Shown here: positions 1-35,282 of the stretch, in pieces
How the letters are laid out: every line of letters starts with the position of its first letter
How positions within the stretch are numbered: position 1 is the stretch's first letter
From: a virus
Taxonomy: Duplodnaviria > Heunggongvirae > Uroviricota > Caudoviricetes
Direction: 5' to 3' (one strand)
IMG/VR virus record: IMGVR_UViG_649989947_000012
Coordinates: 1-39,670 of that record
DNA length: 39,670 nucleotides
The notes under the pieces: model-generated
What the model was told of the DNA's origin: nothing
Databases searched by the model: none
Seen by the model: only the letters and a program-made list of their open reading frames with translations
Position numbers and translations under genes: made by a program

Positions 1-1400
1 CCGATCCAGTGGCTGTGTAAGAATCCGGAAACGCTCACTTGTTTCCGGATTTTTTTTATGCACATTGGACAGGCTCTTGATCTGGTATCCCGTTACGATT
101 CTCTGCGTAACCCACTGACTTCTCTGGGGGATTACCTCGACCCCGAACTCATCTCTCGTTGCCTTGCCGAATCAGGTACTGTAACGCTACGCAAGCGCCG
201 TCTTCCCCTCGAAATGATGGTCTGGTGTATTGTTGGCATGGCGCTTGAGCGTAAAGAACCTCTTCACCAGATTGTGAATCGCCTGGACATCATGCTGCCG
301 GGCAATCGCCCCTTCGTTGCCCCCAGTGCCGTTATTCAGGCCCGCCAGCGCCTGGGAAGTGAGGCTGTCCGCCGCGTGTTCACGAAAACAGCGCAGCTCT
401 GGCATAACGCCACGCCGCATCCGCACTGGTGCGGCCTGACCCTGCTGGCCATCGATGGTGTGTTCTGGCGCACACCGGATACACCAGAGAACGATGCAGC
501 CTTCCCCCGCCAGACACATGCCGGGAACCCGGCGCTCTACCCGCAGGTCAAAATGGTCTGCCAGATGGAACTGACCAGCCATCTGCTGACGGCTGCAGCC
601 TTCGGCACGATGAAGAACAGCGAAAATGAGCTTGCTGAGCAACTTATAGAACAAACCGGCGATAACACTCTGACGTTAATGGATAAAGGTTATTACTCAC
701 TGGGACTGTTAAATGCCTGGAGCCTGGCGGGAGAACACCGCCACTGGATGATACCTCTCAGAAAGGGAGCGCAATATGAAGAGATCAGAAAACTGGGTAA
801 AGGCGATCATCTGGTGAAGCTGAAAACCAGCCCGCAGGCACGAAAAAAGTGGCCGGGACTGGGAAATGAAGTGACTGCCCGCCTGCTGACCGTGACGCGC
901 AAAGGAAAAGTCTGCCATCTGCTGACGTCGATGACGGACGCCATGCGCTTCCCCGGAGGAGAAATGGGGGATCTGTACAGTCATCGCTGGGAAATCGAAC
1001 TGGGATACAGGGAGATAAAACAGACGATGCAACGGAGCAGGCTGACGCTGAGAAGTAAAAAGCCGGAGCTTGTGGAGCAAGAGCGTGTGGGGGGGCTTAC
1101 TGGCTTATAATCTGGTGAGATATCAGATGATTAAAATGGCGGAACATCTGAAAGGTTACTGGCCGAATCAACTGAGTTTCTCAGAATCATGCGGAATGGT
1201 GATGAGAATGCTGATGACATTGCAGGGCGCTTCACCGGGACGTATACCGGAGCTGATGCGCGATCTTGCAAGTATGGGACAACTTGTGAAATTACCGACA
1301 AGAAGGGAAAGGGCCTTCCCGAGAGTGGTAAAGGAGAGGCCCTGGAAATACCCCACAGCCCCGAAAAAGAGCCAGTCAGTTGCTTAACTGACTGGCATTA
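1..1400 (+). mobile_element. IS4 insertion sequence, left end cut by window edge
   Basis: Encodes the IS4 transposase (recognised from memory); right end placed at the palindrome GCCAGTCAGTT/AACTGACTGGC followed by ATTA near 1368-1400. Boundaries approximate. Confidence 0.7.
58..1387 (+). pseudogene. insG: IS4 transposase with broken reading frame
   Basis: ORF 58..1110 carries the N-terminal 340 aa and ORF 1070..1387 carries the C-terminus in another frame; the join is at a G-homopolymer near 1084-1092. Confidence 0.75.
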
Positions 1401-1428
1401 CGGCGGCTGCCGGGGTTATCGTTAACTA

Positions 1429-1689
1429 TTATCGCCTTCGTCTGCGTGCCATATATTTGCGCACCGCGCGACGTGGGCAATCTGAAGCGGTTTCTTTCTG
1501 CTGCATCAATCTTGCAGCCATGCTCAAAAATGTCAGGCACAGCCGAAGCCCGGCATATAATAGCGGTTCCAGTGGCCACGTCTCATTGAGCACATATACC
1601 GCCATGAAAATCGAGTCAAAAACTATCGCCGCCAGCGATAACTTCATTGTCGAAAGTCGGCGGAGCTGCCGGAGTTTATTCATTGACAA
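1429..1689 (-). CDS. hypothetical small membrane protein downstream of lyz
   Basis: 86-aa ORF with a hydrophobic stretch and basic C-terminus, overlapping the lyz 3' end by 14 nt. May be spurious. Confidence 0.2.
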   Translation of the reverse strand: MSMNKLRQLRRLSTMKLSLAAIVFDSIFMAVYVLNETWPLEPLLYAGLRLCLTFLSMAARLMQQKETASDCPRRAVRKYMARRRRR

Positions 1690-2233
1690 GCCCCGTCAGG
1701 CAAAGCTGGCGTTCTTCTTCACGGCGAATCTTTAACCCGGGCAGGGGGACGCCGTTACTGTTCACAAAATCAGGGAGATGGTTACACATATTCACCCATT
1801 CCCCTTTCTGCGCCCACTTGTGGATGGACGTTTCGACTCGCATGCCTCGCGCTTTGCTGTAGTAGGTCCGTAAACTATTGCATCCCATATTGAATGCCGC
1901 GCTTGTCATTGCGCTGAAGGCATTATCGGGCATGTCTTTGCCCCGGAAGTGCTGGTTAATACAGCGTTCAGCGATCAGGATATTCTTTTCCCAATCAGCG
2001 GCGATTTGCTGGTCGGTTTTTCGCACGCCAGGCGTTACCCCGTGTGTATTACCGATCCCGTCGGTCCATACACCCGCCGGGCACTTGTATGGATCACGTC
2101 GGCAACCTTCAGCGTTTCCGATAAGCTCAAGCCCCGCCTGGTTGGTTCGCACATTGCCATTATCCATCACGATGGTAATCATCATCGCGATAGCGCAAAT
2201 TGCACCGCCTCCTGCGGCTGTTTTTCCCTTCAT
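1676..2233 (-). CDS. lyz: SAR-type phage endolysin (P1 Lyz-like), 185 aa
   Basis: From internal Met: MKGKTAAGGGAICAIAMMITIV signal-anchor-release N-terminus followed by a lysozyme domain (ELIGNAEGCRRDPY...GVWTDGIGNT). Start chosen at the in-frame ATG at 2233. Confidence 0.85.
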   Translation of the reverse strand: MKGKTAAGGGAICAIAMMITIVMDNGNVRTNQAGLELIGNAEGCRRDPYKCPAGVWTDGIGNTHGVTPGVRKTDQQIAADWEKNILIAERCINQHFRGKDMPDNAFSAMTSAAFNMGCNSLRTYYSKARGMRVETSIHKWAQKGEWVNMCNHLPDFVNSNGVPLPGLKIRREEERQLCLTGLVNE

Positions 2234-2366
2234 AAAGACCTCATAAGCGAATTTTTTACGCTCCAGGACAAACACCCATTCACAGCCAATACCGACTGAC
2301 TCGATCCCTTTAGAAGGCACAGGATAATGCAAATCACTTGTTAGCTACGTTTCAAAGATATACATT

Positions 2367-2383
2367 ATTGCTCTAATTAATTT
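2367..2383 (+). promoter_or_regulatory. C1-repressor-operator-like 17-mer ATTGCTCTAATTAATTT
   Basis: One mismatch to the P1 C1 operator consensus ATTGCTCTAATAAATTT (consensus from memory); sits about 20 nt upstream of the ssb start, followed by a TAAGAT -10-like hexamer. Confidence 0.4.
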
Positions 2384-2402
2384 ATTTTATTAGGTAAGAT
2401 AA

Positions 2403-2891
2403 GTGGCACAACGCGGTGTAAACAAAGTCATCCTGATTGGTACCCTGGGGCAAGACCCGGAGATCAGGTATATACCAAATGGCGGAGCGGTCGGAAGACT
2501 CAGCATCGCAACGAATGAATCATGGCGCGACAAGCAAACGGGCCAACAGAAAGAGCAAACAGAATGGCATAGAGTCGTTTTGTTCGGGAAACTTGCTGAA
2601 ATTGCGAGTGAGTATTTACGAAAAGGTTCTCAGGTCTACATCGAAGGGAAACTTAAAACCCGTAAGTGGACAGATGACGCCGGTGTAGAACGTTACACGA
2701 CGGAAATTATCGTCAGCCAGGGCGGAACTATGCAAATGATCGGCGCCCGCCGCGACGATTCACAGTCCTCAAATGGCTGGGGGCAATCAAACCAACCTCA
2801 AAACCACCAGCAATACAGCGGTGGCGGCAAACCTCAGAGCAGCGCCAATAACGAACCTCCAATGGACTTTGACGACGATATTCCGTTTTAG
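2403..2891 (+). CDS. ssb: single-stranded DNA-binding protein, phage/plasmid type
   Basis: OB-fold SSB signature ([46 protein letters not shown]) and acidic tail ending [11 protein letters not shown]; GTG start. Confidence 0.9.
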
Positions 2892-2930
2892 AGTTAACTT
2901 GTGAGTTATTTGTAAATAGTTCATACACAG

Positions 2931-2958
2931 GCCCCTGTTAATACAGGGGATTTTTATT
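2931..2958 (+). terminator. rho-independent terminator after ssb
   Basis: Hairpin CCCCTGT-taata-ACAGGGG followed by ATTTTTATTT. Confidence 0.55.
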
Positions 2959-3139
2959 TCTAGTAACTATAAGAGGTGTTAATTATTAATTGACAATCTT
3001 TAGTGTTTCGCGCACCTTGCAAGTATCCAATATTTACTGATTGTGGACGCATAAAGAAGATCCACAGCGTTACAAATTTGTATTTCTTTCTTCAGCAATT
3101 AAGCAGGCGACTTGCTCTATCCTGCCCAAAGGAACACGT

Positions 3140-4495
3140 ATGACACACTGCAAAGAAAATACTTGGTATGAGCGTCAAGGGTACAATACCACCCGCCCGA
3201 ATGAGATAAGGTCGGAGTATGAACGTGATCTTTCCCGGTTAATCCACTCTTCCGCTTTTAGGAGATTACAATCGAAGACGCAGGTGTTGGGATTGGGCGA
3301 AAGCGATTTCTACCGTACGCGGCTAACTCACTCTATGGAAGTAGCGCAAATTGGCGGCGGTATCTTGTCTCAGTTGTCTAAGCGCGATACAGATGAGGGG
3401 GGTAAATTCTTACCTGACCCAAGCCTGATGCAGGCTATCTGCCTTGCTCATGATATAGGACATCCCCCCTTCGGTCATGGTGGTGAGGTCGCACTAAACT
3501 ACTGCATGAGATCCTATGGCGGCTTTGAAGGTAACGGGCAGACACTGCGTATACTCTCCAAACTGGATAAGTACACCGAAACCAATGGGCTGGATCCCAC
3601 CCGTAGACTTATTTTAGGCGTACTGAAATATCCAGCAAGCTATTCAGAGGTCGTCAATGAGAGGGCTTACAGCCAGTTACAGCCAAGAAGCAATGAGTGG
3701 TTGTTTAAATCATCCGAATTTAAGCCCCCGAAATGTTACCTGGACTCTGAGGAGAACACTGTTAGATTCGCACTCCAACCTTTTGATAGTGATGATGTTA
3801 AGTTATTCAAAACGGTAAAAACTACCGCGTTGAATAAGCACAAGGAAACAATATATAAAGCACTGGATACAACGATTATGGACTTGGCTGATGAGATATC
3901 CTACTCACTCCATGATCTTGAAGACGCAATTTCTCTGAAGATGATCGACAAAAAAATGTGGGAGGAGCACTTCGAGGACAAATCCCATTTATTTGCAGCT
4001 TGCCAATGCGACTCGTTTAATCTAAAAGCCGATGATGTAGCTGAAAAACTGTTCGGCGAAAGTTATCTACGCAAGGAGTGCATAGGGACACTTGTTCATC
4101 TGATGATCACTAGCGTTAAGCTTGAAGTGCAGAACTCTGATTTCAAAAGTAAAATTTTACGCTATAAAGTAGCACTTCCTGCCGCGGTAGAAGAGTTACG
4201 TAAAGCCATTTTTGAGCTGGTTAGGAACAAAGTTATTCAGCACGAAAACGTCCAACTATTAGAGTTCAAAGGTCAGAAACTGATTGTGGAACTATTCAAT
4301 GTACTGGCAAATGACCCAATACGTTTTCTCCCGACAGAAACTCGAAAGAAATATAATCAAGAGGAAGCAAAAGGTGATGATAAAAAAATGCGCGTCATTT
4401 GCGACTATGTTTCAGGCATGACAGATGATTACGCTACTCGACTGTATGAGAAAATATTTGTACCGAGAAAAGGCTCTATTTTTGATAGACTCTGA
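3140..4495 (+). CDS. dGTPase-family HD-domain dNTP triphosphohydrolase, 451 aa
   Basis: Dgt-family motifs RTRLTHSMEVAQIG, LAHDIGHPPFGH, MDLADEISYSLHDLEDA and C-terminal DYVSGMTDDYATRLY; start at internal ATG 3140 with an AAGGA ribosome-binding site; AT-rich relative to flanking phage genes. Confidence 0.8.
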   Translation: MTHCKENTWYERQGYNTTRPNEIRSEYERDLSRLIHSSAFRRLQSKTQVLGLGESDFYRTRLTHSMEVAQIGGGILSQLSKRDTDEGGKFLPDPSLMQAICLAHDIGHPPFGHGGEVALNYCMRSYGGFEGNGQTLRILSKLDKYTETNGLDPTRRLILGVLKYPASYSEVVNERAYSQLQPRSNEWLFKSSEFKPPKCYLDSEENTVRFALQPFDSDDVKLFKTVKTTALNKHKETIYKALDTTIMDLADEISYSLHDLEDAISLKMIDKKMWEEHFEDKSHLFAACQCDSFNLKADDVAEKLFGESYLRKECIGTLVHLMITSVKLEVQNSDFKSKILRYKVALPAAVEELRKAIFELVRNKVIQHENVQLLEFKGQKLIVELFNVLANDPIRFLPTETRKKYNQEEAKGDDKKMRVICDYVSGMTDDYATRLYEKIFVPRKGSIFDRL

Positions 4496-4660
4496 TTTTT
4501 TTCTATTATATAGTACGTAGCCTGGTTCCAGAACCGCATAAAATTAGATCTGGATATAATTCATTTAATTATCTGTTATATGCCAAACATAACGATATAT
4601 AATAGTGGATTAGATGTTACAACTTGACGCAGAATAAATAGCTTTTATTGGCGCATGATG

Positions 4661-4688
4661 CAAACCCCGCAATGAAGCGGGGTTTTAA
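4661..4688. terminator. bidirectional hairpin terminator between convergent genes
   Basis: AACCCCGC-aatgaa-GCGGGGTT flanked by T-runs on both strands. Confidence 0.45.
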
Positions 4689-4702
4689 CTGTGGTAAATG
4701 AG

Positions 4703-4814
4703 TTATAATCTTTTAATCAGGCTCTCAATATTAGTTGGTTCAAAGTAATGCTTATTAACCTCTCCATTTATGAGAAAACCGTCTTTTAGTAGTCGGTCTA
4801 GCTCACGCTCTGCT
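4703..4814 (-). pseudogene. 3' part of a small membrane-protein gene split by the IS10-derived element
   Basis: Hand translation continues the 6332..6597 frame across the insertion (…KEAER|ELDRLLKDGFLINGEVNKHYFEPTNIESLIKRL) once the element and one duplication copy are removed. Confidence 0.45.
4806..4814. repeat. 9-bp target-site duplication CGCTCTGCT, left copy
   Basis: Identical 9-mer directly abuts both ends of the IS10-derived element (4806-4814 and 6332-6340). Confidence 0.8.
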
Positions 4815-6143
4815 CTGATGAATCCCCTAATGATTTTGGTAAAAATCATTAAGTTAAGGTGGATACACATCTTGTCATATGATCAAATGGTTTCGCGAAA
4901 AATCAATAATCAGACAACAAGATGTGCGAACTCGATATTTTACACGACTCTCTTTACCAATTCTGCCCCGAATTACACTTAAAACGACTCAACAGCTTAA
5001 CGTTGGCTTGCCACGCATTACTTGACTGTAAAACTCTCACTCTTACCGAACTTGGCCGTAACCTGCCAACCAAAGCGAGAACAAAACATAACATCAAACG
5101 AATCGACCGATTGTTAGGTAATCGTCACCTCCACAAAGAGCGACTCGCTGTATACCGTTGGCATGCTAGCTTTATCTGTTCGGGCAATACGATGCCCATT
5201 GTACTTGTTGACTGGTCTGATATCCGTGAGCAAAAACGGCTTATGGTATTGCGAGCTTCAGTCGCACTACACGGTCGTTCTGTTACTCTTTATGAGAAAG
5301 CGTTCCCGCTTTCAGAGCAATGTTCAAAGAAAGCTCATGACCAATTTCTAGCCGACCTTGCGAGCATTCTACCGAGTAACACCACACCGCTCATTGTCAG
5401 TGATGCTGGCTTTAAAGTGCCATGGTATAAATCCGTTGAGAAGCTGGGTTGGTACTGGTTAAGTCGAGTAAGAGGAAAAGTACAATATGCAGACCTAGGA
5501 GCGGAAAACTGGAAACCTATCAGCAACTTACATGATATGTCATCTAGTCACTCAAAGACTTTAGGCTATAAGAGGCTGACTAAAAGCAATCCAATCTCAT
5601 GCCAAATTCTATTGTATAAATCTCGCTCTAAAGGCCGAAAAAATCAGCGCTCGACACGGACTCATTGTCACCACCCGTCACCTAAAATCTACTCAGCGTC
5701 GGCAAAGGAGCCATGGGTTCTAGCAACTAACTTACCTGTTGAAATTCGAACACCCAAACAACTTGTTAATATCTATTCGAAGCGAATGCAGATTGAAGAA
5801 ACCTTCCGAGACTTGAAAAGTCCTGCCTACGGACTAGGCCTACGCCATAGCCGAACGAGCAGCTCAGAGCGTTTTGATATCATGCTGCTAATCGCCCTGA
5901 TGCTTCAACTAACATGTTGGCTTGCGGGCGTTCATGCTCAGAAACAAGGTTGGGACAAGCACTTCCAGGCTAACACAGTCAGAAATCGAAACGTACTCTC
6001 AACAGTTCGCTTAGGCATGGAAGTTTTGCGGCATTCTGGCTACACAATAACAAGGGAAGACTCACTCGTGGCTGCAACCCTGCTTACTCAAAATCTATTC
6101 ACACATGGTTACGTTTTGGGGAAATTATGAGGGGATCTCTCAG
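4815..6143 (+). mobile_element. IS10 (IS10-Right type), complete 1329 bp
   Basis: Outside end CTGATGAATCCCCTAATGATTTTGG at 4815 and inside end (complement of CTGAGAGATCCCCTCATAATTTCCCC) ending at 6143; encodes an intact 402-aa transposase. Confidence 0.9.
4922..6130 (+). CDS. tnp: IS10 transposase, 402 aa
   Basis: Full-length ORF beginning MCELDILHDSLYQFCPELHLKRLNSLTLACHALLDCK, recognised as the Tn10/IS10 transposase. Confidence 0.95.
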   Translation: MCELDILHDSLYQFCPELHLKRLNSLTLACHALLDCKTLTLTELGRNLPTKARTKHNIKRIDRLLGNRHLHKERLAVYRWHASFICSGNTMPIVLVDWSDIREQKRLMVLRASVALHGRSVTLYEKAFPLSEQCSKKAHDQFLADLASILPSNTTPLIVSDAGFKVPWYKSVEKLGWYWLSRVRGKVQYADLGAENWKPISNLHDMSSSHSKTLGYKRLTKSNPISCQILLYKSRSKGRKNQRSTRTHCHHPSPKIYSASAKEPWVLATNLPVEIRTPKQLVNIYSKRMQIEETFRDLKSPAYGLGLRHSRTSSSERFDIMLLIALMLQLTCWLAGVHAQKQGWDKHFQANTVRNRNVLSTVRLGMEVLRHSGYTITREDSLVAATLLTQNLFTHGYVLGKL

Positions 6144-6331
6144 CGTTAAGCTGTTGAGTCGTTTTAAGTGTAATTCGGGGCAGAATTGGTAAAGAGAGTC
6201 GTGTAAAATATCGAGTTCGCACATTTTGTTGTCTGATTATTGATTTTTGGCGAAACCATTTGATCATATGACAAGATGTGTATCTACCTTAACTTAATGA
6301 TTTTGATAAAAATCATTAGGGGATTCATCAG
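6144..6331 (-). mobile_element. inverted 188-bp fragment of an IS10 outside end
   Basis: Reverse complement of 4815-5002 with a few substitutions (for example TTTTTATCAAAATC versus TTTTGGTAAAAATC), abutting the inside end of the full copy. Confidence 0.85.
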
Positions 6332-6340
6332 CGCTCTGCT
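6332..6340. repeat. 9-bp target-site duplication CGCTCTGCT, right copy
   Basis: Matches 4806-4814 exactly. Confidence 0.8.
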
Positions 6341-6597
6341 TCTTTGTTGAACATACCTGGATATATTCTCTTGTACAACTGAAACGTACCATTCATATTC
6401 CTGTAAGCATTCTCAGCAATTTCAATGGAGATTTCATTTCCGGCGTTAAATACAGGAATGAATATCTCAAGAATATCATTCTTTAACTTCTGTTTAAGTT
6501 TCTTTTTTTCAACAATATTAGAATAAAAGATACCTAAAAAAAATGTGCAGATACCAGGAAGCCAATTATTAACGAAAACCTCAGACAAAGCGTCCAC
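6332..6597 (-). pseudogene. 5' part of the small membrane-protein gene split by the IS10-derived element
   Basis: ORF 6328..6597 begins MDALSEVFVNNWLPGICTFFLGIFYSNIV (hydrophobic N-terminus) and runs into the IS end, where it meets a stop inside IS10 sequence. Confidence 0.45.
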
Positions 6598-7112: not shown

Positions 7113-10089
7113 TATTTAGCTCCTTTGCCACACCTAATAACAGTTCCAGCAATCCGTCACCATTCATCAGTGATGCGGCAGCGGCCTCTTTGTCATGATA
7201 CAACTGAAGAGCCATAGAGAATACTTCCGTTGCTGACGTTTTGGAAATAGTCGGTGATTTCTGCCGAATTTTCCCGGTGTTACTTACTGAGGCTGGCGGG
7301 TATACCTTCGCCATATAAATATTACTCAATCGAGATCTGAAGCACCATTCAGGCTTGCCACGCCCACCGATATTGACGAAAGATGGCTTATCCCCTTCAA
7401 CATTGGCCTTCAGGAATGACCGGGCTTTCTCTAACAAACCAGGGTTACTGTACTCAAGATGATGACCCAGCTCGTGCCACAGTGCACTTGCATTTTCATC
7501 GTTCAAATTGACAGCAACAACACCATTTAGATTTGCATATGCCCTTCCCTGGTGGTGAACTACCTTTGATAAGGTCGATATTTTCCCGCCGGTCAGGCGA
7601 TAAATATCAGCAAGTTCCTTGCGCAGGTCTATCCCACCATTCTGTCCAGCGCGGGCTTCTTCCACTTCTTCTGTGATAAAAGAGTCGGCCCACTCAAGAG
7701 CTTTTTCTTCAGATACGGATGAGTTTGCGATCGCACTGTTCATGGCAGATAACACTTTCTCGTGGACCGAACCCATACTTCGCTGATTCATTTGCCAGCG
7801 TGTCTGCGGGTTATATGAGAATCGCTTAAGTAGTTGGTCAAGCTGCTCAAGTTCTTCTTCACTGACATACTTTTTAGCCTCACCAATAATGCCAGGGAGA
7901 ATATTGCCGTTAGGATTAAACGCTCGCGAAAGGAAGAGTTTCAGCGCCCCCATGCCCTCCGATGCTTCAATATCACCAATAACCCGGTTAACAATGGCCG
8001 CACTCTTCGGATTAGCATCCGCCAACGCTCTGGCTACAATTTGCAGGGACGATACGACCTCACGCTGCATATCCGTCCTGATCTCATCAATAAACTCTGG
8101 CGTTATGCCGTGCTCTTTAAGGATATCCCTGCCTTCCGCCGTTACCCCATCGATATCTCCGACATGTTTATTAACCCGACTTTGCAATGCCTTAAATGCC
8201 TTCAGAATTCCACGGGAATCATCCGCTTTACTAACGGCCTTCCTGAATGCTGGCAAGAAGTCTGAGTTAACCTCATTTTGTTGATCGGCCCACTGAATGG
8301 AGGCTTCTTTCATCTCGTCCAGAGTCAGATCACCCAACGCGGTATGGTCTGTGAATATGAGCGACAACCTCTGAACCATTTCTGCCAATGGTGATGCCGA
8401 ATGCGCCGCGCTAAGGAATGCTTTCACCCTGGTTGGGCGAATGGAAAACCAGTCAATAGCTGGTGGCATATCTCCGTTTTGTATCGCCTGCGCTATCTCA
8501 TCAAAGCCGTCGCGCCCAAGGGAGGATGCGTGATTTAACAATCCGCGAAGTAACGAATTGCTGATACCGAATAATCGGCACCATTTATTCACGTCGGCAA
8601 CAGGCATTCGAACAAAATGCGCAAGCACTTGTACAAGCTGTTCATCCTGGGGATCTGTGCGGGAAAGCAGCCTGATCAGATGAATAATGTCTTTGATGCC
8701 GGATGCCCGATGTAATAGCAAACTGGTATATGGAGCAACACCGTTGTAACTACCGCCGGAAACGGACTCGAAAAGACCGCCGGATATCCCTTGCATGCCT
8801 TCGTTTTCCAGTTCCTGAGACACCTGGCGAAGGATATCCTGTAACGACACATCACCACCGCCAAACATATCCCCCAGCGCCTGGCCCTGGTGCTGTAACT
8901 CATCATTGATACGTTGAGCCATCAATTTAAAGGCGGTGGCCATACGCTTCGCGCTACGGTTATTCGCGACGATGAACAACGCGAGAGCTTTCACTTCCGG
9001 GGCTGTTTCGCTGAACATATCCCCCTGAGCAATAACATCGGTAATATGTTGGCCTGACTCCTTCGATTGCCTTACCAGGTCTACCGCATCTTTCAATGCC
9101 GCCAGCGCCTTTTTATCGAGGCTATCCGCTGTTTCAATGCCATCAACGATGGTTGTCACAGCCTGCTTGTGCGCTTCTCCTGATAAAGCCTGCATCTGGA
9201 CAAAATCATTGGCTGCCGCATTAAGCGCCGTCAGAACATTACGCATATCCGGATCAGGTTCTTCTGCAACCATCCTTACCAGGCGCGCATCCTTATATGC
9301 CTTGGCAAAGATCGCGTTTTGTATACGGTCTACAAGTTGCCGTGTTGGTCGCCCATCTTCAGTTACAAGGCCAGCCGCCTGTGTGGCACCAACTTGCGTC
9401 ATAAATCCGCGAATAAACGCGTCATTACTGCGGCTAAGCAGATCTCCACTTTCTGACGGGTTAAACAACGCCATCATCGCCGGTGTTATGCTGTCGGCAT
9501 CAACAAAAGCCTTTTCACTGGCTGCCATTTCCTGGAGATCAGAAATATTTGAGTCCTTGGCAAACTGAACACGGTCAACCTTCGTTAACCGGCGGCGCAC
9601 CAGTACCGGAGCCGTCATTGATTCAACCTTTTCAGGCCGTATGCCGAATTCGGTCGCATGTTCAATCAGGTACTCCCGATACCGATCCGCATTACCGTCC
9701 TGATAGGCTTTAATGATCCCCATGGTCCGCCCATTACCTGACTCAACGGCATTGTCCTCACCAATTATTGGCGCACCATGGCTGGATAAACCGGAATCAG
9801 TAAGCTGAGCTGGCCGCAAATCTTTGGATATCTGGTTAACCTGAAGAAGGCTGGATGCGCGGGTCCGGTCGCGCGGCTGAAGTTCCTGGGGATAGTCAGG
9901 ATTAATTTTCCCATCCAGAGTATTGGATACCAAAAGAGCTGAGGCATCGACGATATCAAACGCTGTTTTTACCTCGTCTCCCTTCGCTGTCACCACATAC
10001 GAAACCCGCCCATAATCGGGCAGGTTCTTTAGCAGCTCGATCAGCGTTTCTATGCTGGTGGCCATTACCACCTGATCGCTTAAGCTCAT
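7102..10089 (-). CDS. ddrB: large Dar-operon protein, DdrB-like (995 aa)
   Basis: Size and position after DarA-like and DdrA-like genes fit the P1 darA operon (from memory); carries an HExxH motif (ALWHELGHHLEY) near the C-terminus. Confidence 0.5.
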   Translation of the reverse strand: MSLSDQVVMATSIETLIELLKNLPDYGRVSYVVTAKGDEVKTAFDIVDASALLVSNTLDGKINPDYPQELQPRDRTRASSLLQVNQISKDLRPAQLTDSGLSSHGAPIIGEDNAVESGNGRTMGIIKAYQDGNADRYREYLIEHATEFGIRPEKVESMTAPVLVRRRLTKVDRVQFAKDSNISDLQEMAASEKAFVDADSITPAMMALFNPSESGDLLSRSNDAFIRGFMTQVGATQAAGLVTEDGRPTRQLVDRIQNAIFAKAYKDARLVRMVAEEPDPDMRNVLTALNAAANDFVQMQALSGEAHKQAVTTIVDGIETADSLDKKALAALKDAVDLVRQSKESGQHITDVIAQGDMFSETAPEVKALALFIVANNRSAKRMATAFKLMAQRINDELQHQGQALGDMFGGGDVSLQDILRQVSQELENEGMQGISGGLFESVSGGSYNGVAPYTSLLLHRASGIKDIIHLIRLLSRTDPQDEQLVQVLAHFVRMPVADVNKWCRLFGISNSLLRGLLNHASSLGRDGFDEIAQAIQNGDMPPAIDWFSIRPTRVKAFLSAAHSASPLAEMVQRLSLIFTDHTALGDLTLDEMKEASIQWADQQNEVNSDFLPAFRKAVSKADDSRGILKAFKALQSRVNKHVGDIDGVTAEGRDILKEHGITPEFIDEIRTDMQREVVSSLQIVARALADANPKSAAIVNRVIGDIEASEGMGALKLFLSRAFNPNGNILPGIIGEAKKYVSEEELEQLDQLLKRFSYNPQTRWQMNQRSMGSVHEKVLSAMNSAIANSSVSEEKALEWADSFITEEVEEARAGQNGGIDLRKELADIYRLTGGKISTLSKVVHHQGRAYANLNGVVAVNLNDENASALWHELGHHLEYSNPGLLEKARSFLKANVEGDKPSFVNIGGRGKPEWCFRSRLSNIYMAKVYPPASVSNTGKIRQKSPTISKTSATEVFSMALQLYHDKEAAAASLMNGDGLLELLLGVAKELNNAD

Positions 10090-10467: not shown

Positions 10468-12383
10468 ACCGCTACCCCCGCTTTCTGGATTGCTACCAAC
10501 AGATCAGCCAGGTGGCGAGCTGCGCCGTTAACCAGCTCTTCGTTTTCCTCAAAACGTCCGGCAGCCTGAAGGGCTGCAATCGCTTCCCGGACATTGCCCC
10601 GGGCGTTACGGATCTCCGCCATGTCAGTGCTTTGTATATCCATCACGTTATTGAGATATTCAATGGCTTTATTAGCCTCTGCATCTGCTTCGCTAACCGT
10701 TTCATCAGGCTGTGCCGGGGCCGGTTCTGGCTGAGTAATCTCACCGACTTCGGCCTGCAATGCATTGATCATGCTCTGCACCATTTTCTCGGTGCCAGCG
10801 CCACCCGGAAACGCAATATTGGGGAAAGTTTTTTGAAACTGAGTTTTCAGCATTACGCGGAACTCGTCTGGTGAGCTGGTGGCCTGCTCCAGAGCTTTTT
10901 GTGCATATTTGCCAAATGGACCATTAGTAAGTGTCTTCGCCAGGAAGTCGAAAGAATCCTCGCGAGGCAATAACTTCAGGTCGTACTCGCTCATTTGCTG
11001 ATCAGAAAGCGGGGTATCGTAAGTAGCAATGCCGTAGCGTGCATATTCATAATACGGGTCACCTTCATCAGGGCGTGGCAGAATTGCTTTGTTACCTTCA
11101 GGTATTGCGCCAGGGGCCGCCGGACGCATTTGCAGGGCATATCGATATGCACCTATAGAGACTTCTGGTTCAGGCGAAGAGCTACCGGTATCCTCCGCTG
11201 GTTCAGGTTCGACGTTTTCCGGTTTATGTTCTTCTGGTTGGACCAGGTATTCCGATACATTACCCGCTTTATAGGCTTTAAACAGCTTGCCGATCGCATC
11301 TGCCATGTCCACACCCTGTATGGATTTAGCCTTGATCATGTACACGCTGCCATCCGAATCGGTTAACTGGATATACCCTTCACCGTCCTCAATGAATTGC
11401 TTCATTGATGCACCATTACTGAGCGTCACTTCCCCGTTCATATGCATACGATTTTTGATACTTGCAAGGCGATCCGTCATCGCGCGAGAGTGTCCACCTG
11501 TCATCCCCGCAGGAGCAATGGTTTCGCGCCCACCAGTGCGATTGAGCTGATCAATCTCCGTCTGCAAACGCTCATTCTCTTCATAAAGAGAATCCGCTTC
11601 CGATGCAACAGCGTTAATTTTCTGCTCCAGATCTACCTTCTGCCCTTCTACCGCTGCCACCTGATCCGCGAGGTCGCTCATGGCATCCTCTTTCTGGTCA
11701 CTGTCAGCCTGTAGTTGGGTTATTTCATCAACCAGGGCTTTTTTCTTCTTCTGCGCACGCTGGAATTTTGCCGAGTTTTTCTCTGCAAGGTTGGCAAGTT
11801 TCATGGTGACCTGCGCCAGCGTCATATCACGTCCACTCATCGGAGCAACGGTGTGAGTAACGTCTTTTTTATTCAGTAAGAACTGGAAAGCAACCAGCGT
11901 ATCGCTATTGGTGATCCGGTTTTCCGCTGTCGGGCTATGAAACAGAATGCTGATAGTCTGACCATCACTGAGCGGAATAATGGCTGGCAGGACCGGCAGC
12001 CCGTTAACGTTACGTGCCCGGCCAATTTCAGCGCCGCCGATCGCGCGCGCGCCGCTCTGGGCCACATCCCCCGTTTTATCACTCCCCGCAGAGATTCCGG
12101 TACCATTCAGCTTCTGGTTCAATGCCCGGACAAATGCCTGCATGGTCCGGTGTAACTGCAAACGAGTAGAACTAATCGCCTCCAGTAAATCCGTAGCACA
12201 CCAGTGGATCGGCGTGTCATAGAAGAACGTAGCCTCGATTTCCTCCAGGGTGTTGGATTCCGTCATCAGATAGCGGTCCTCACCGGCCATTAATGCGCGA
12301 TATTCATCATCAGTCACTGGCGGGGGAAGCACGTCAAGCCCAGGCTTGATCGTCACCCCTTTATTGATATTGAACTGTTCCAT
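10464..12383 (-). CDS. darA: DarA-like antirestriction protein (639 aa)
   Basis: Size and operon position; central coiled-coil region; shares a segment (NSAKFQ…) with the upstream 203-aa Hdf-like protein. Confidence 0.5.
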   Translation of the reverse strand: MEQFNINKGVTIKPGLDVLPPPVTDDEYRALMAGEDRYLMTESNTLEEIEATFFYDTPIHWCATDLLEAISSTRLQLHRTMQAFVRALNQKLNGTGISAGSDKTGDVAQSGARAIGGAEIGRARNVNGLPVLPAIIPLSDGQTISILFHSPTAENRITNSDTLVAFQFLLNKKDVTHTVAPMSGRDMTLAQVTMKLANLAEKNSAKFQRAQKKKKALVDEITQLQADSDQKEDAMSDLADQVAAVEGQKVDLEQKINAVASEADSLYEENERLQTEIDQLNRTGGRETIAPAGMTGGHSRAMTDRLASIKNRMHMNGEVTLSNGASMKQFIEDGEGYIQLTDSDGSVYMIKAKSIQGVDMADAIGKLFKAYKAGNVSEYLVQPEEHKPENVEPEPAEDTGSSSPEPEVSIGAYRYALQMRPAAPGAIPEGNKAILPRPDEGDPYYEYARYGIATYDTPLSDQQMSEYDLKLLPREDSFDFLAKTLTNGPFGKYAQKALEQATSSPDEFRVMLKTQFQKTFPNIAFPGGAGTEKMVQSMINALQAEVGEITQPEPAPAQPDETVSEADAEANKAIEYLNNVMDIQSTDMAEIRNARGNVREAIAALQAAGRFEENEELVNGAARHLADLLVAIQKAGVAV

Positions 12384-18495: not shown

Positions 18496-20897
18496 TATTT
18501 AGCCCTCACCAGAAAGTTAAATGCAATATTTCGTGGACGGGTTTCTGTACCTACATGTCCACTAATTTCACCATAACGTTTAACACTACGAGAGCTAAGA
18601 GCTCGTAGTGAGGAAGGCACCCTAAGACCGGGTTCGTCCGTTTTAACTATTCCCCCGTCACCATATGTAGCCAGTATTCCTGGGTTTACTCCTTCCCGTG
18701 CACTTCCTGCAGCAAGCCCGTCCCCCGTCCACAATTCCATATTGTGTGCATGATCCATAATTGTGTGTGATTGCCCTGAAAGTAGGGTACGTCCGACATC
18801 AATCCCGCGCCCATCATCCCAGATACGAATGAAATCACCCCGTGCGTCAGGTAATGCTAGCGCCGGAAACACTTTCGCCAGCACAGGGTAATCAGTGGCA
18901 GAGAATTTCGCGCCGTTGAACTTCAAAAACACCATACTGGACCAACTGTCGATTACAGTATTTGGCATTGCGGCGGACGGCCAGAAGAACGGAACGCCAA
19001 TAGCTGGAGCACCTTCTCCCAAACCAAGGTAATCAAGAACTCCCTGAGTGCTGGTTTTACCAAGAATGGTACGTCCAACACTTGTCAACGCGGTTAACGC
19101 GGCACGATCTGCCCCTGTAAAATATGGGAGTTTATCTGCTGATGTAGCAAGCTCTGCCAGCGCCGTCAGGGTGGCATCCTTCGGTTGCTTACCCGCAAGC
19201 GCGTTAGTCATGGTGGTCGCAAAATTCGGGTCATTGCCCAGCGCTGCAGCCAGTTCGTTCAGCGTGTTCAGTGCATCAGGTGACGAATCTACAAGTGCGG
19301 CAATCGCAGCCATAACGAAAGCCGTGCTTGCGATCTGGGTACTATTAGTCCCCTGTGGCGCTGTTGGTGTTGTTGGCGTTCCGGTCAGTGCCGGGCTGTT
19401 TAATGGTGCTTTCTTGTTCGTTTCATCCATTACTGCCTTAACAGCGTTTGGTGTCGCTGCCAGCGTTTCAGACGTGCTGTTCGTGGCGCTACTGAGCTGA
19501 ACAATCCCTTTTTGTGTAGTGGTGGCGTTCTGGGCGGTATATTTCCCGTTAGCCAGGTCATATGCAGCCTTGACAGCTTTCGGTGTGGCGGCCAGCACTT
19601 CAGACGTGCTGTTAGTGGCACTACTGAGCTGAGTGATGCCTTTCGCTGTCAATGAAGCTGTTGGCACACCAGTGATCTGATTCCAGGGATGTGTATGACT
19701 GGATGGTGCCTTTCCGGCTGCTAGATCGTATGCAGCTTTAACCGCTTTTGGCGTTGCAGCTAATGTTTCAGAAGTGCTGTTGGTGTCGCTACTGAGCTGA
19801 ACTATCCCTTTTTGTGTCGTGGTTGCATCCTGGGCTGTATACTTCCCGTTAGCCAGGTCATATGCAGCCTTGACAGCTTTCGGTGTGGCGGCCAGCACTT
19901 CAGACGTGCTGTTAGTGGCACTACTGAGCTGAGTGATGCCTTTCGCTGTCAATGAAGCTGTTGGCACACCAGTGATCTGATTCCAGGGATGTGTATGACT
20001 GGATGGTGCCTTTCCGGCTGCTAGATCGTATGCAGCTTTAACCGCTTTTGGCGTTGCAGCTAATGTTTCAGAAGTGCTGTTGGTGTCGCTACTGAGCTGA
20101 ACTATCCCTTTTTGTGTCGTGGTTGCATCCTGGGCTGTATACTTCCCGTTAGCCAGGTCATATGCAGCCTTGACAGCTTTCGGTGTGGCGGCCAGCACTT
20201 CGGACGTACTGTTAGTGGCACTACTGAGCTGAACTAATCCCTTTTGCGTTGTGCTTGCATCCTGCGCCGTATACTTGCTTTTCGCCAGATCGTAGGCTTT
20301 TTTAACTGCCAGCGAACTCGCAGCAACATCACTTCTGGTACTGGTTACAGAGTCTGAAATATCAATGCCGATCGTGCGGTTGATACGCTCGGATGTATCA
20401 ATCATCTCTTGAGTAATGGTAGATACGCCAGCAGGGATATTCACCGTACAAACCAGCAGTTCCCCATCACCTAACTGATATGAATCGGTATAGGTTCTGG
20501 CAACAAATTCAGCTGCATGAATATGTGACGCGGTATTCACCTGATAGGTATCTTCTCCAAGAAGGTATCTTCCCTTCAGCACAATTGCATATTTCTTGCC
20601 TGCGTTAAGTGCAAGAGAGATATCCTTACGATGCTGAATAGTTACCTGGTAGAATTCACCAATATCCACTGACGCCGCGCCAGCGGTTTTATCTCCATCC
20701 ACTGAGGTGATTAACAGGTTCATCCCACCGCCAGGCTTAGGCAAGAAACCAGCATAAAATCCCGGGTCAACAATTCCCCTGAATTTTCGGTTTAGAGCGG
20801 CTGACAGATATGGTTCGTGGTATTGCACATCAGCCACCAGAGCCAACGACTCGGGTGATGGGTAAGTAACCGATGTAACAACTGTAACGTCATTCAT
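18495..20897 (-). CDS. tail-fibre protein (about 800 aa) with internal 100-aa tandem repeats
   Basis: Start chosen at the internal Met (MNDVTVVTSV) just after the upstream gene; repeated ATNSTSEVLAATPKAVKAAYDLANGKYTAQD units; crossover site at 19014-19039 splits constant and variable parts. Confidence 0.8.
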   Translation of the reverse strand: MNDVTVVTSVTYPSPESLALVADVQYHEPYLSAALNRKFRGIVDPGFYAGFLPKPGGGMNLLITSVDGDKTAGAASVDIGEFYQVTIQHRKDISLALNAGKKYAIVLKGRYLLGEDTYQVNTASHIHAAEFVARTYTDSYQLGDGELLVCTVNIPAGVSTITQEMIDTSERINRTIGIDISDSVTSTRSDVAASSLAVKKAYDLAKSKYTAQDASTTQKGLVQLSSATNSTSEVLAATPKAVKAAYDLANGKYTAQDATTTQKGIVQLSSDTNSTSETLAATPKAVKAAYDLAAGKAPSSHTHPWNQITGVPTASLTAKGITQLSSATNSTSEVLAATPKAVKAAYDLANGKYTAQDATTTQKGIVQLSSDTNSTSETLAATPKAVKAAYDLAAGKAPSSHTHPWNQITGVPTASLTAKGITQLSSATNSTSEVLAATPKAVKAAYDLANGKYTAQNATTTQKGIVQLSSATNSTSETLAATPNAVKAVMDETNKKAPLNSPALTGTPTTPTAPQGTNSTQIASTAFVMAAIAALVDSSPDALNTLNELAAALGNDPNFATTMTNALAGKQPKDATLTALAELATSADKLPYFTGADRAALTALTSVGRTILGKTSTQGVLDYLGLGEGAPAIGVPFFWPSAAMPNTVIDSWSSMVFLKFNGAKFSATDYPVLAKVFPALALPDARGDFIRIWDDGRGIDVGRTLLSGQSHTIMDHAHNMELWTGDGLAAGSAREGVNPGILATYGDGGIVKTDEPGLRVPSSLRALSSRSVKRYGEISGHVGTETRPRNIAFNFLVRAK
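19014..19039. other. cix/gix/hix-like 26-bp inversion crossover site inside the fibre gene
   Basis: TTCTCCCAAACC-AA-GGTAATCAAGAA, close to the hix/gix pattern TTCTnnnAAACC-nn-GGTTTnnnAGAA (from memory). Confidence 0.55.
19490..20240. repeat. direct tandem repeats of about 300 bp, roughly 2.5 copies, within the fibre gene
   Basis: Sequence from about 19501 to 19800 is repeated nearly identically at 19801-20100 and again from 20101. Confidence 0.8.
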
Positions 20898-31246: not shown

Positions 31247-31560
31247 GTATTTTTAAGTCGCGAATGCTATCTTTTCGCATCATGTTGACCTTTTAATCGT
31301 TCAGGCTTATAGTTCCGCCGTCGTAGCAAATTCTGCGACCGGGTTTAGCAGCCTGAATGATTGTGCGGACAGCCGCAGATATCCGATATTGCGGTATTTT
31401 TGTGTCCGTAAAACCGCGTTACGCCCAAATTATGGTGGGGCGTGATGGGGAGGCTTCGGCCTGCTGGTTTCACAATCGCCAGTCTGCTAACCCCGTCACG
31501 TCCTGCCACCTGTTTAGCAGCGGGTAGCAGGTTGTTAAACCTGATTGTGAGGCCGTAACT

Positions 31561-34952: not shown

Positions 34953-35075
34953 TACAATCGTTGCGGGTGCTTGAGGCTATCTGCTTCAGGCATTACCCGA
35001 AAAGCAGATAGAAGAAAGCCCCAGATAACATTACGCGTCCTGCAAGACGCTTAACATTAATCTGAGGCCATATCT

Positions 35076-35282
35076 ATGCTTAGCATACGTAGATTAGCCT
35101 CTTACCGACCAAAAGGTCAAGGAGAAGCAGGCTATGAAGCAGCAAAAAGCGATGTTAATCGCTCTGATCGTCATCTGTTTAACCGTCATTGTGACGGCAC
35201 TGGTAACGAGGAAAGACCTCTGCGAGGTACGAATCCGAACCAGCCAGACGGAGGTCACTGTCTTCACAGCCTACGAATCTGA
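35076..35282 (+). CDS. mok-like reading frame overlapping hok
   Basis: 68-codon ORF that starts upstream of and overlaps almost all of the hok-like gene, as in hok/mok/sok loci. Confidence 0.4.
   Translation: MLSIRRLASYRPKGQGEAGYEAAKSDVNRSDRHLFNRHCDGTGNEERPLRGTNPNQPDGGHCLHSLRI

Follow-up and report, generated by a model that had tools for sequence, protein, structure and literature searches.

The Tn10 transposon inserts at targets that resemble the consensus NGCTNAGCN and generates 9-bp duplications (PMC4574204). Rearrangements promoted by Tn10 begin only at the inside ends of its IS10 copies, both of which are cut (double-strand) beforehand; attack on the same strand gives deletions, and attack on the opposite strand gives inversions (PMC2723962). 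The properties of RNA-OUT, the antisense RNA of IS10, have also been described (PMC5006887). Here we analysed a window of 39,670 bp—the whole stretch of DNA under study, which comes from a P1-like phage-plasmid of Escherichia coli—and found a full-length IS10 joined to a short inverted piece of a second one. To judge from its sequence, this element is probably a decayed Tn10 that retains the function of a small composite transposon. Our searches of the open-access literature, outside which the classical Tn10 papers lie, turned up no earlier account of precisely this architecture.

The insertion comprises an IS10, an insertion sequence of the IS4 family, with its canonical termini CTGATGAAT...GGGGATCTCTCAG and an inverted outside-end fragment (here called the stub), in which IS10 positions 1–188 appear as their reverse complement; together they span 1517 bp (Table 1). 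A reading of this DNA made from the letters alone (the sequence-only reading) had placed the unit at these coordinates between identical 9-bp repeats, and exact indexing agrees: CGCTCTGCT is present at both edges and has no third occurrence on either strand of the window. That reading also took the fragment to be an outside end of IS10; it aligns over its full 188 bp, and the similarity breaks off at position 188. A repeat search independently recovered the inverted arms (194 nt, 96%). Nothing lies between the last base of the IS10 inside end (6143) and the stub; the entire 6.5-kb central region is absent, tetR/tetA(B) included. The 1517-bp element is a Tn10 remnant, not Tn10 itself. Two complete outside ends in inverted orientation, with both termini intact, enclose the source of transposase; the function of the outside end at 4815–4837 is that of established IS10 biology. 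The 41-codon open reading frame (ORF) across the internal junction follows the truncated transposase gene of the stub for its first 27 codons and then reads through into the inside end, and its product is probably non-functional.

Table 1. Features of the insertion and of the gene that it interrupts (window coordinates)
Feature	Position	Strand	Basis
Interrupted 122-codon hypothetical gene, 3' part	4703..4814	-	ORF list
Target-site duplication, left copy (CGCTCTGCT)	4806..4814	.	Exact indexing; single copy in relatives' empty site
Full-length hybrid IS10, 1329 bp	4815..6143	+	Alignment to R100 IS10-L/IS10-R
Outside end, Right type, terminal transposase-binding repeat	4815..4837	+	Identical to R100 IS10-R 1–23
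RNA-OUT antisense RNA gene, full copy	4860..4929	-	Rfam RF00240, 98.8 bits (gathering score 41)
Transposase gene, intact, 402 codons	4922..6130	+	ORF list, Pfam, residue comparison
Junction ORF, 41 codons	6099..6224	-	ORF list
IS10 inside end with Dam site (GATC at 6134), last base joined to stub	6121..6143	+	
Stub, IS10-Left 188 to 1, with second complete outside end	6144..6331	-	Alignment to R100
Intra-IS10 target 9-mer AGCTTAACG (IS10 180–188), at inside-end junction	6144..6152	-	
Second RNA-OUT gene, Left type, within stub	6217..6286	+	Rfam RF00240, 97.3 bits
Target-site duplication, right copy (CGCTCTGCT)	6332..6340	.	Exact indexing
Interrupted 122-codon hypothetical gene, 5' part	6332..6597	-	ORF list

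The 9147-bp Tn10 of plasmid R100, in which IS10-Left and IS10-Right differ at 15 positions, served as the reference for typing. The comparison of the fragment's substitutions with IS10-Left, which the sequence-only reading had proposed, was run, and all six match. The stub is identical to the IS10-Left of R100 at 188 of 188 positions; its six differences from the adjoining full copy (24, 25, 27, 47, 83 and 107) are each an IS10-Left state and are exactly the Left/Right markers of that interval. The full copy aligns without gaps, with 9 differences to R100 IS10-R and 8 to IS10-L, and its markers form a mosaic: Right at 24–107, Left at 410 and 425, Right at 903 and Left at 1249–1300. Position 203 is A, the state of Right-type copies in other Tn10s, and the copy is a single base away from the right-hand IS10 of the Tn10 of pBH100-1. 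Judged by these markers, the 'complete IS10' is evidently a Right/Left hybrid and not IS10-Right. Its 402-aa transposase has a DDE domain (Pfam DDE_Tnp_1, 1.5e-24) and differs from the IS10-R transposase at three C-terminal residues (L381S, A389T and A398V) and from the IS10-L transposase by I266V. Both the full copy and the stub have a recognisable RNA-OUT gene, and that of the full copy overlaps the start of the transposase gene. The co-occurrence of IS10-Left and IS10-Right states in inverted orientation within 1517 bp, together with the same junction at the classical Tn10 site of R100 in the same genome (below), bears out the earlier suggestion that the unit derives from Tn10.

The internal junction was made by transposase, because the exact inside-end terminus stands on one side of it and a target-like 9-mer on the other. 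Base 6143 abuts IS10 position 188 exactly, and the 9-mer at 180–188 is among only 6 of 1321 IS10 9-mers that match NGCTNAGCN at five or more of six positions. A perfect GCT half-site is present in three of the five distinct intra-IS10 junction targets identified here and in other genomes (P ~6e-4 by chance). The outer repeat also scores 5/6 against NGCTNAGCN, a level reached by only 0.42% of the 9-mers in the window. It is identical at eight of nine positions to the duplication of the R100 Tn10, CGCTCTGCC; the flanks are not homologous, and we treat this identity as target preference. In a different P1-like lineage (Logan SRR23130374, flanks 98.6% identical), an IS10 inside end lies at exactly the base used here, which makes CGCTCTGCT a hot spot for IS10 in plasmids of this type. 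A 23-bp match that extends past the inside end in hundreds of ordinary Tn10s was set aside as the weak similarity of two target-like sequences.

Positions 1401–4805 of the window match phage vB_EcoM-673R5 at 98.8%; laboratory P1 matches over 1401–2889 only, at 97%. The sequence-only reading had also proposed a search for the uninterrupted target in related genomes, and vB_EcoM-673R5 has it: one CGCTCTGCT, inside a minus-strand hypothetical gene of 122 codons. The empty site, rebuilt over 1800 bp, has a one-piece match (99.1–99.9%) in 41 PLSDB plasmids and 53 complete-genome E. coli records, far beyond chance, and none of these relatives carries Tn10 at the site. Their sources include human, chicken, pig, horse, crow and river-water isolates, and the flanks of the insertion are 99.9% identical to plasmids from blood, river-water, chicken and crow isolates. 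Because the empty site is intact in around 90 P1-like relatives, the P1 insertion is real, recent and private to the lineage of the window. The assembly GCA_002466345.1 has the insertion too, at 100% identity, and breaks 77 bp into the element. The interrupted gene, which is annotated as intact in relatives, now gives an 89-aa product with a stop that lies inside the element; its 122-aa protein has no match in Pfam or PADLOC. The convergent neighbour of this gene (3041–4495) is an anti-phage dGTPase (Pfam/PADLOC).

An exact-product lookup of the 41-aa junction ORF returned four contigs, all from one assembly, the draft E. coli genome GCA_000183005.2: contig ADUL01000036.1, which is the window, and three others. 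Across this genome, the identical junction between IS10-Left 1–188 and an inside end adjoins four distinct flanks—the P1 site (CGCTCTGCT), a porin gene (AGCATAGCT), the chromosomal ybdN (TACCCTACC) and the left flank of the R100 Tn10 (CGCTCTGCC). Two of the copies have a 2667-bp form, [L 1–188][L 1329–180][R 1329–1], composed of pure Left and pure Right parts and with the 9-mer 180–188 at each of the internal junctions; in these copies the outside end of Right type remains next to CGCTCTGCC and the R100 flank on the psiB side. The 2667-bp form is an inversion-type inside-end product that formed in place at the R100 site. The remaining copy outside the window is 1518 bp in length, and its IS10 switches cleanly from Right to Left between 903 and 1249; the window copy differs from it at 410 and 425 only, plus a 1-bp homopolymer indel. 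Recombination between the 1150-bp direct repeats of the 2667-bp form would be expected to leave 2667 - 1150 = 1517 bp. At ybdN, two TACCCTACC flanks on different contigs rejoin into the intact gene, as present in 1778 complete genomes, giving a second complete duplication pair, bounded by the Left stub end and the Right outside end.

Because this rare junction formed once at the R100 site and is now at three further places, transposition of a unit with an outside end at either edge must have taken place; the P1 copy is one such event. Movement as one unit on two outside ends, as the sequence-only reading had it, is upheld by the new and perfect 9-bp duplication, the ~90 empty sites, the four flanks and the second pair in ybdN. 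The mobility of the unit is documented in one strain only. Exact 31-mer scans of genome, viral and metagenome contig collections gave 0 matches to the junction of the inside end with position 188, BLAST searches returned no match in one piece over its full length from E. coli complete genomes, PLSDB or phages, and a lookup of a 52-aa junction ORF gave no record. GCA_000183005.2 is a draft in which the copies differ by 1-bp homopolymer-type indels and repeats of 1.3–2.7 kb may be mis-threaded or collapsed. In three of its four contigs, the element has a chromosomal flank on one side and a plasmid flank on the other, which reflects either real plasmid integration (between two direct copies) or chimeric contigs. 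As the spans from flank to junction are ~200 bp, the multi-locus evidence, unlike the length of the interior, is robust to draft assembly.

Sequenced genomes commonly contain related remnants. At one chromosomal site, which lies between a pfkB-like gene and cobU, they form a decay series in which every member is flanked by AGCTTTGCA. The series includes intact Tn10 (9147 bp in ten genomes, 9148 bp in one and enlarged to 10,461 bp in another), an IS10-Left with a 208-bp IS10-Right stub (SCU-104, 1537 bp), an inversion-type remnant with 628–636 duplicated (strain 98219, 2667 bp), a solo IS10-Left (TCM3e1) and a 50-bp scar (two strains). An IS10 with a stub and intact repeats can, on this evidence, arise without any movement of the small unit. 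The SCU-104 junction of the inside end with position 208 is likewise a singleton.

We propose an origin in four steps. An R100-type Tn10 with pure IS10-Left and pure IS10-Right occupied the classical CGCTCTGCC site of an R100-like plasmid; we count this step as established because, in the genome of the window, the remnant borders on the left as well as the right flank of that site. Transposase would then have cut both inside ends, with the tet segment discarded, and the ends would have attacked IS10-Left 180–188 in the inversion topology to give the 2667-bp form. The anatomy of that form, with the 9-mer at both junctions, is present in two copies, and the mechanism is the one that we infer from established Tn10 biology. 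Homologous recombination between the two 1150-bp direct repeats would have removed 1150 bp and left the 1517-bp form: a hybrid IS10, with a Right-type outside half and a Left-type inside half, and the 188-bp Left stub. This step is proposed because it accounts for the marker pattern. Finally, either the 2667-bp or the 1517-bp form would have been excised by cuts at both outside ends and inserted at the hot-spot target in the P1-like plasmid, duplicating CGCTCTGCT and truncating the 122-codon gene; the insertion itself is directly visible in the P1-like backbone. A single deletion-type event, which would have placed the inside end of IS10-Right onto position 188 of IS10-Left, was dropped owing to the Left markers at the inside end of the full copy and the 2667-bp inversion-type precursor in the same genome. 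A direct deletion from a pure IS10-Right would leave Right markers at 1249–1300, where the window has Left. The earlier picture of a Tn10 that lost its interior and most of its second IS10 holds in that the element is a remnant; the single-deletion route is improbable, and an inversion-type event followed by repeat collapse takes its place.

Decay in place was the reading that we favoured after the cobU-side series came to light, and it was downgraded once the junction was found at four loci. A complete Tn10 would have inserted at CGCTCTGCT and collapsed there, and the small unit itself would never have moved. Collapse of this kind certainly happens, as natural E. coli show at the cobU-side site, always within the AGCTTTGCA repeats; moreover, 180–188 ranks among the best targets in IS10 and could be attacked repeatedly. 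However, the same junction with the same Left and Right parts also lies at the R100 Tn10 site and at two chromosomal sites, which makes its independent re-creation in P1 unparsimonious; a direct deletion in place from the pure IS10-Right of this genome would have kept Right markers at 1249–1300, and the relatives with the P1 site are all free of Tn10 there. We consider decay in place quite unlikely. Nested insertion, in which one IS10 entered another at 180–188 and was later cut out on two outside ends with no inside-end event of Tn10, seems very improbable. It would yield the same junction of the inside end with position 188, and nested copies exist (a Klebsiella pneumoniae plasmid has a full IS10 at 354–362 of another, with the 9-mer duplicated), but the body of IS10-Left (1329 to 180) in the 2667-bp form points the opposite way to its own stub and sits between that stub and IS10-Right, a layout with the inversion-type topology rather than that of a split recipient. 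Provided that the 2667-bp copies are correctly assembled, their anatomy refutes a nested origin. The element also occupies the classical site of Tn10, and its Left and Right copies are arranged as in that transposon.

The assembly itself might also mislead: the insertion could be real and its true content the 2667-bp form or another arrangement, with the 1517-bp hybrid a collapsed Left/Right consensus. The markers of the window copy are patchy (Right, Left at 410/425, Right at 903, then Left), do not fit one clean exchange and could be noise in the consensus of a 2667-bp copy that was collapsed, whereas the sister copy of 1518 bp switches cleanly. The draft status of the assembly, the 1-bp homopolymer indels between copies and the break of the second assembly shortly after it enters the element point in the same direction. 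Against this, the assembler resolved the 2667-bp form on two other contigs, the junction of stub and inside end and both junctions of flank and outside end lie within ~200 bp of unique sequence and are robust, and the 1517-bp design has an independent analogue in a finished genome (SCU-104). An artefact of this kind is unlikely in our view. A decayed Tn10 that still moves as a small composite transposon is the reading that we carry forward as probable.

By established IS10 biology, three ends of the unit are usable, and with its transposase gene intact and two genes for RNA-OUT, further movement could involve just the IS10 or the unit as a whole. The sequence GATC occurs at 4881, 6134 and 6262, and both outer ends are without the Dam-controlled site of the inside end. 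The RNA-OUT of the stub and the resident RNA-IN overlap by 35 nt, with mismatches at positions 83 and 107. A more ambitious reading, which we consider rather doubtful, is that the IS10 with its stub has evolved naturally into a self-sufficient element that has two outside ends and outperforms ordinary IS10, as neither of its working ends is a Dam-sensitive inside end; it would be actively multiplying in this strain (at least four copies), would have driven the integration of an R100-like plasmid into the chromosome and would now be riding on a P1-like phage-plasmid. Were this so, the phage-plasmid could bring the element to new hosts inside phage particles.

The element is a clean but essentially ordinary case of known transposon behaviour, and known Tn10 biology is not overturned. 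Its interest is as a fully dissectable natural case in which a resistance transposon decays to a small, still-mobile element, which has here entered a phage-plasmid and thus a vehicle that travels from cell to cell as a virus. In tetracycline-sensitive strains, past carriage of Tn10 is marked by IS10 copies that bear a stub, inversion-type remnants, solo IS10 at a former Tn10 site and 50-bp scars. The sequence-only reading had called such structures typical of tetracycline-sensitive Tn10 derivatives, in agreement with the speA remnant of NEB Turbo and the natural decay series, and had seen in them a hint of a laboratory history. That hint finds no support: the rebuilt empty site is 99.1–99.9% identical to plasmids of wild isolates, and wild E. 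coli carry the same kinds of remnant; Tn10 decay remnants are not evidence of laboratory manipulation. NEB Turbo, a laboratory strain, carries a remnant of the same kind, and the design is not specific to the laboratory.

Like Tn10, the window element has two inverted IS10 outside ends, an IS10 transposase, cut-and-paste movement and a 9-bp duplication at a NGCTNAGCN-like target, and its Left/Right markers are identical to those of the R100 Tn10. Unlike Tn10, it lacks the tet and jem cargo, retains only 188 bp of the second IS10, measures 1517 rather than 9147 bp and has a Right/Left recombinant as its surviving IS10. It shares with Tn10-promoted deletions and inversion/deletions the precise joining of an inside end to a target-like 9-mer in the partner IS10, and its inversion-type form has the 9-mer at both junctions, as in Tn10-promoted inversion/deletions. 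The speA remnant of NEB Turbo has the mirror-image design at 354–362, and the remnant of E. coli 98219 has it at 628–636; unlike in these other Tn10-promoted products, the target here was 180–188, 1150 bp were then lost, apparently by homologous recombination, and the product went on to transpose to new sites. SCU-104 offers the same plan of a full IS10, an inside end that abuts an inverted outside-end stub and intact 9-bp repeats. In contrast to the window element, it arose in place (relatives keep an intact Tn10 there) as a direct deletion-type product, is pure IS10-Left and occupies a single locus with no sign of movement. The laboratory mini-Tn10 is likewise a short element between two outside ends, and short length favours transposition. 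However, mini-Tn10 is engineered and supplied with transposase from outside, whereas the window element is natural and carries its own transposase between its ends.

The CGCTCTGCT site at which the Tn10 remnant resides is a hot spot for IS10. At 6267-6296 in sequence data from a different P1-like lineage (Logan SRR23130374, 98.6% identical), the inside end of an IS10 is inserted at the base of CGCTCTGCT that corresponds precisely to window position 6332, an independent hit. Targets within IS10 itself also recur independently: positions 354-362 were used in NEB Turbo (in speA) and by a nested IS10 on a Klebsiella pneumoniae plasmid, and positions 628-636 were used in both LY180 and 98219.

Elsewhere in the window, the contig starts inside an IS4-family element and homology to P1 begins only at position 1401, so a repeat boundary forms the edge of the contig. 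An anti-phage dGTPase gene is placed between ssb and the gene that is interrupted by the remnant; this stretch is absent from laboratory P1 and present in many natural P1-like plasmids. In phage vB_EcoM-673R5 (4732-6085), the same gene is annotated as two coding sequences (288 bp and 990 bp), pointing to either a frameshift or an error in the sequence at this position. Two types of regulatory RNA were identified, and no tRNA genes were found within the window.

Additional annotated features of the window
Feature	Position	Strand	Details
IS4-family element	1-1399		Contig starts inside the element
ORF of IS4-family element	58-1110		350 aa; Nterm_IS4 and DDE domains
Anti-phage dGTPase gene	3041-4495	+	PADLOC dGTPase, 5e-149
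P1 immunity C4 antisense RNA with a1/b1 target, and sok antitoxin RNA	31307-31513 and 34965-35139		Rfam

Three other contigs of the same draft genome (ADUL01000065, 039 and 046 of GCA_000183005.2) connect R100-like plasmid flanks with those of chromosomal ybdN and porin, with copies of the element lying in between. These junctions reflect either plasmid integration between direct copies, in a cointegrate-like arrangement, or chimeric draft contigs. In the Tn10 of E. coli XJ6.2, both IS10 copies share a private G (position 943), and position 903 of the right copy is in the Left state, evidence of gene conversion between the two arms of the transposon.

Natural decay of a single Tn10 insertion can be followed in E. 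coli chromosomes at a locus with a pfkB-like gene on one side and cobU on the other. Every member of this series is flanked by AGCTTTGCA repeats; the members comprise intact Tn10 (9147 bp), IS10-Left with a 208-bp stub (1537 bp), an inversion type (2667 bp), a solo IS10-Left (1329 bp) and a 50-bp scar.

In R100, the plasmid that carries the reference Tn10, the transposon is flanked by the duplication CGCTCTGCC (9723-9731 and 18879-18887), which is identical at 8 of 9 positions to CGCTCTGCT of the window (4806-4814). The flanks of the two insertion sites are unrelated, and the resemblance looks like a target preference that extends beyond the 6-bp consensus. Within the R100 Tn10, the 9 bp adjoining the inside end of IS10-Left (11061-11069) are TGCTCAGCA, a perfect NGCTNAGCN target that may be a trace of the IS10 insertion by which Tn10 was originally formed.
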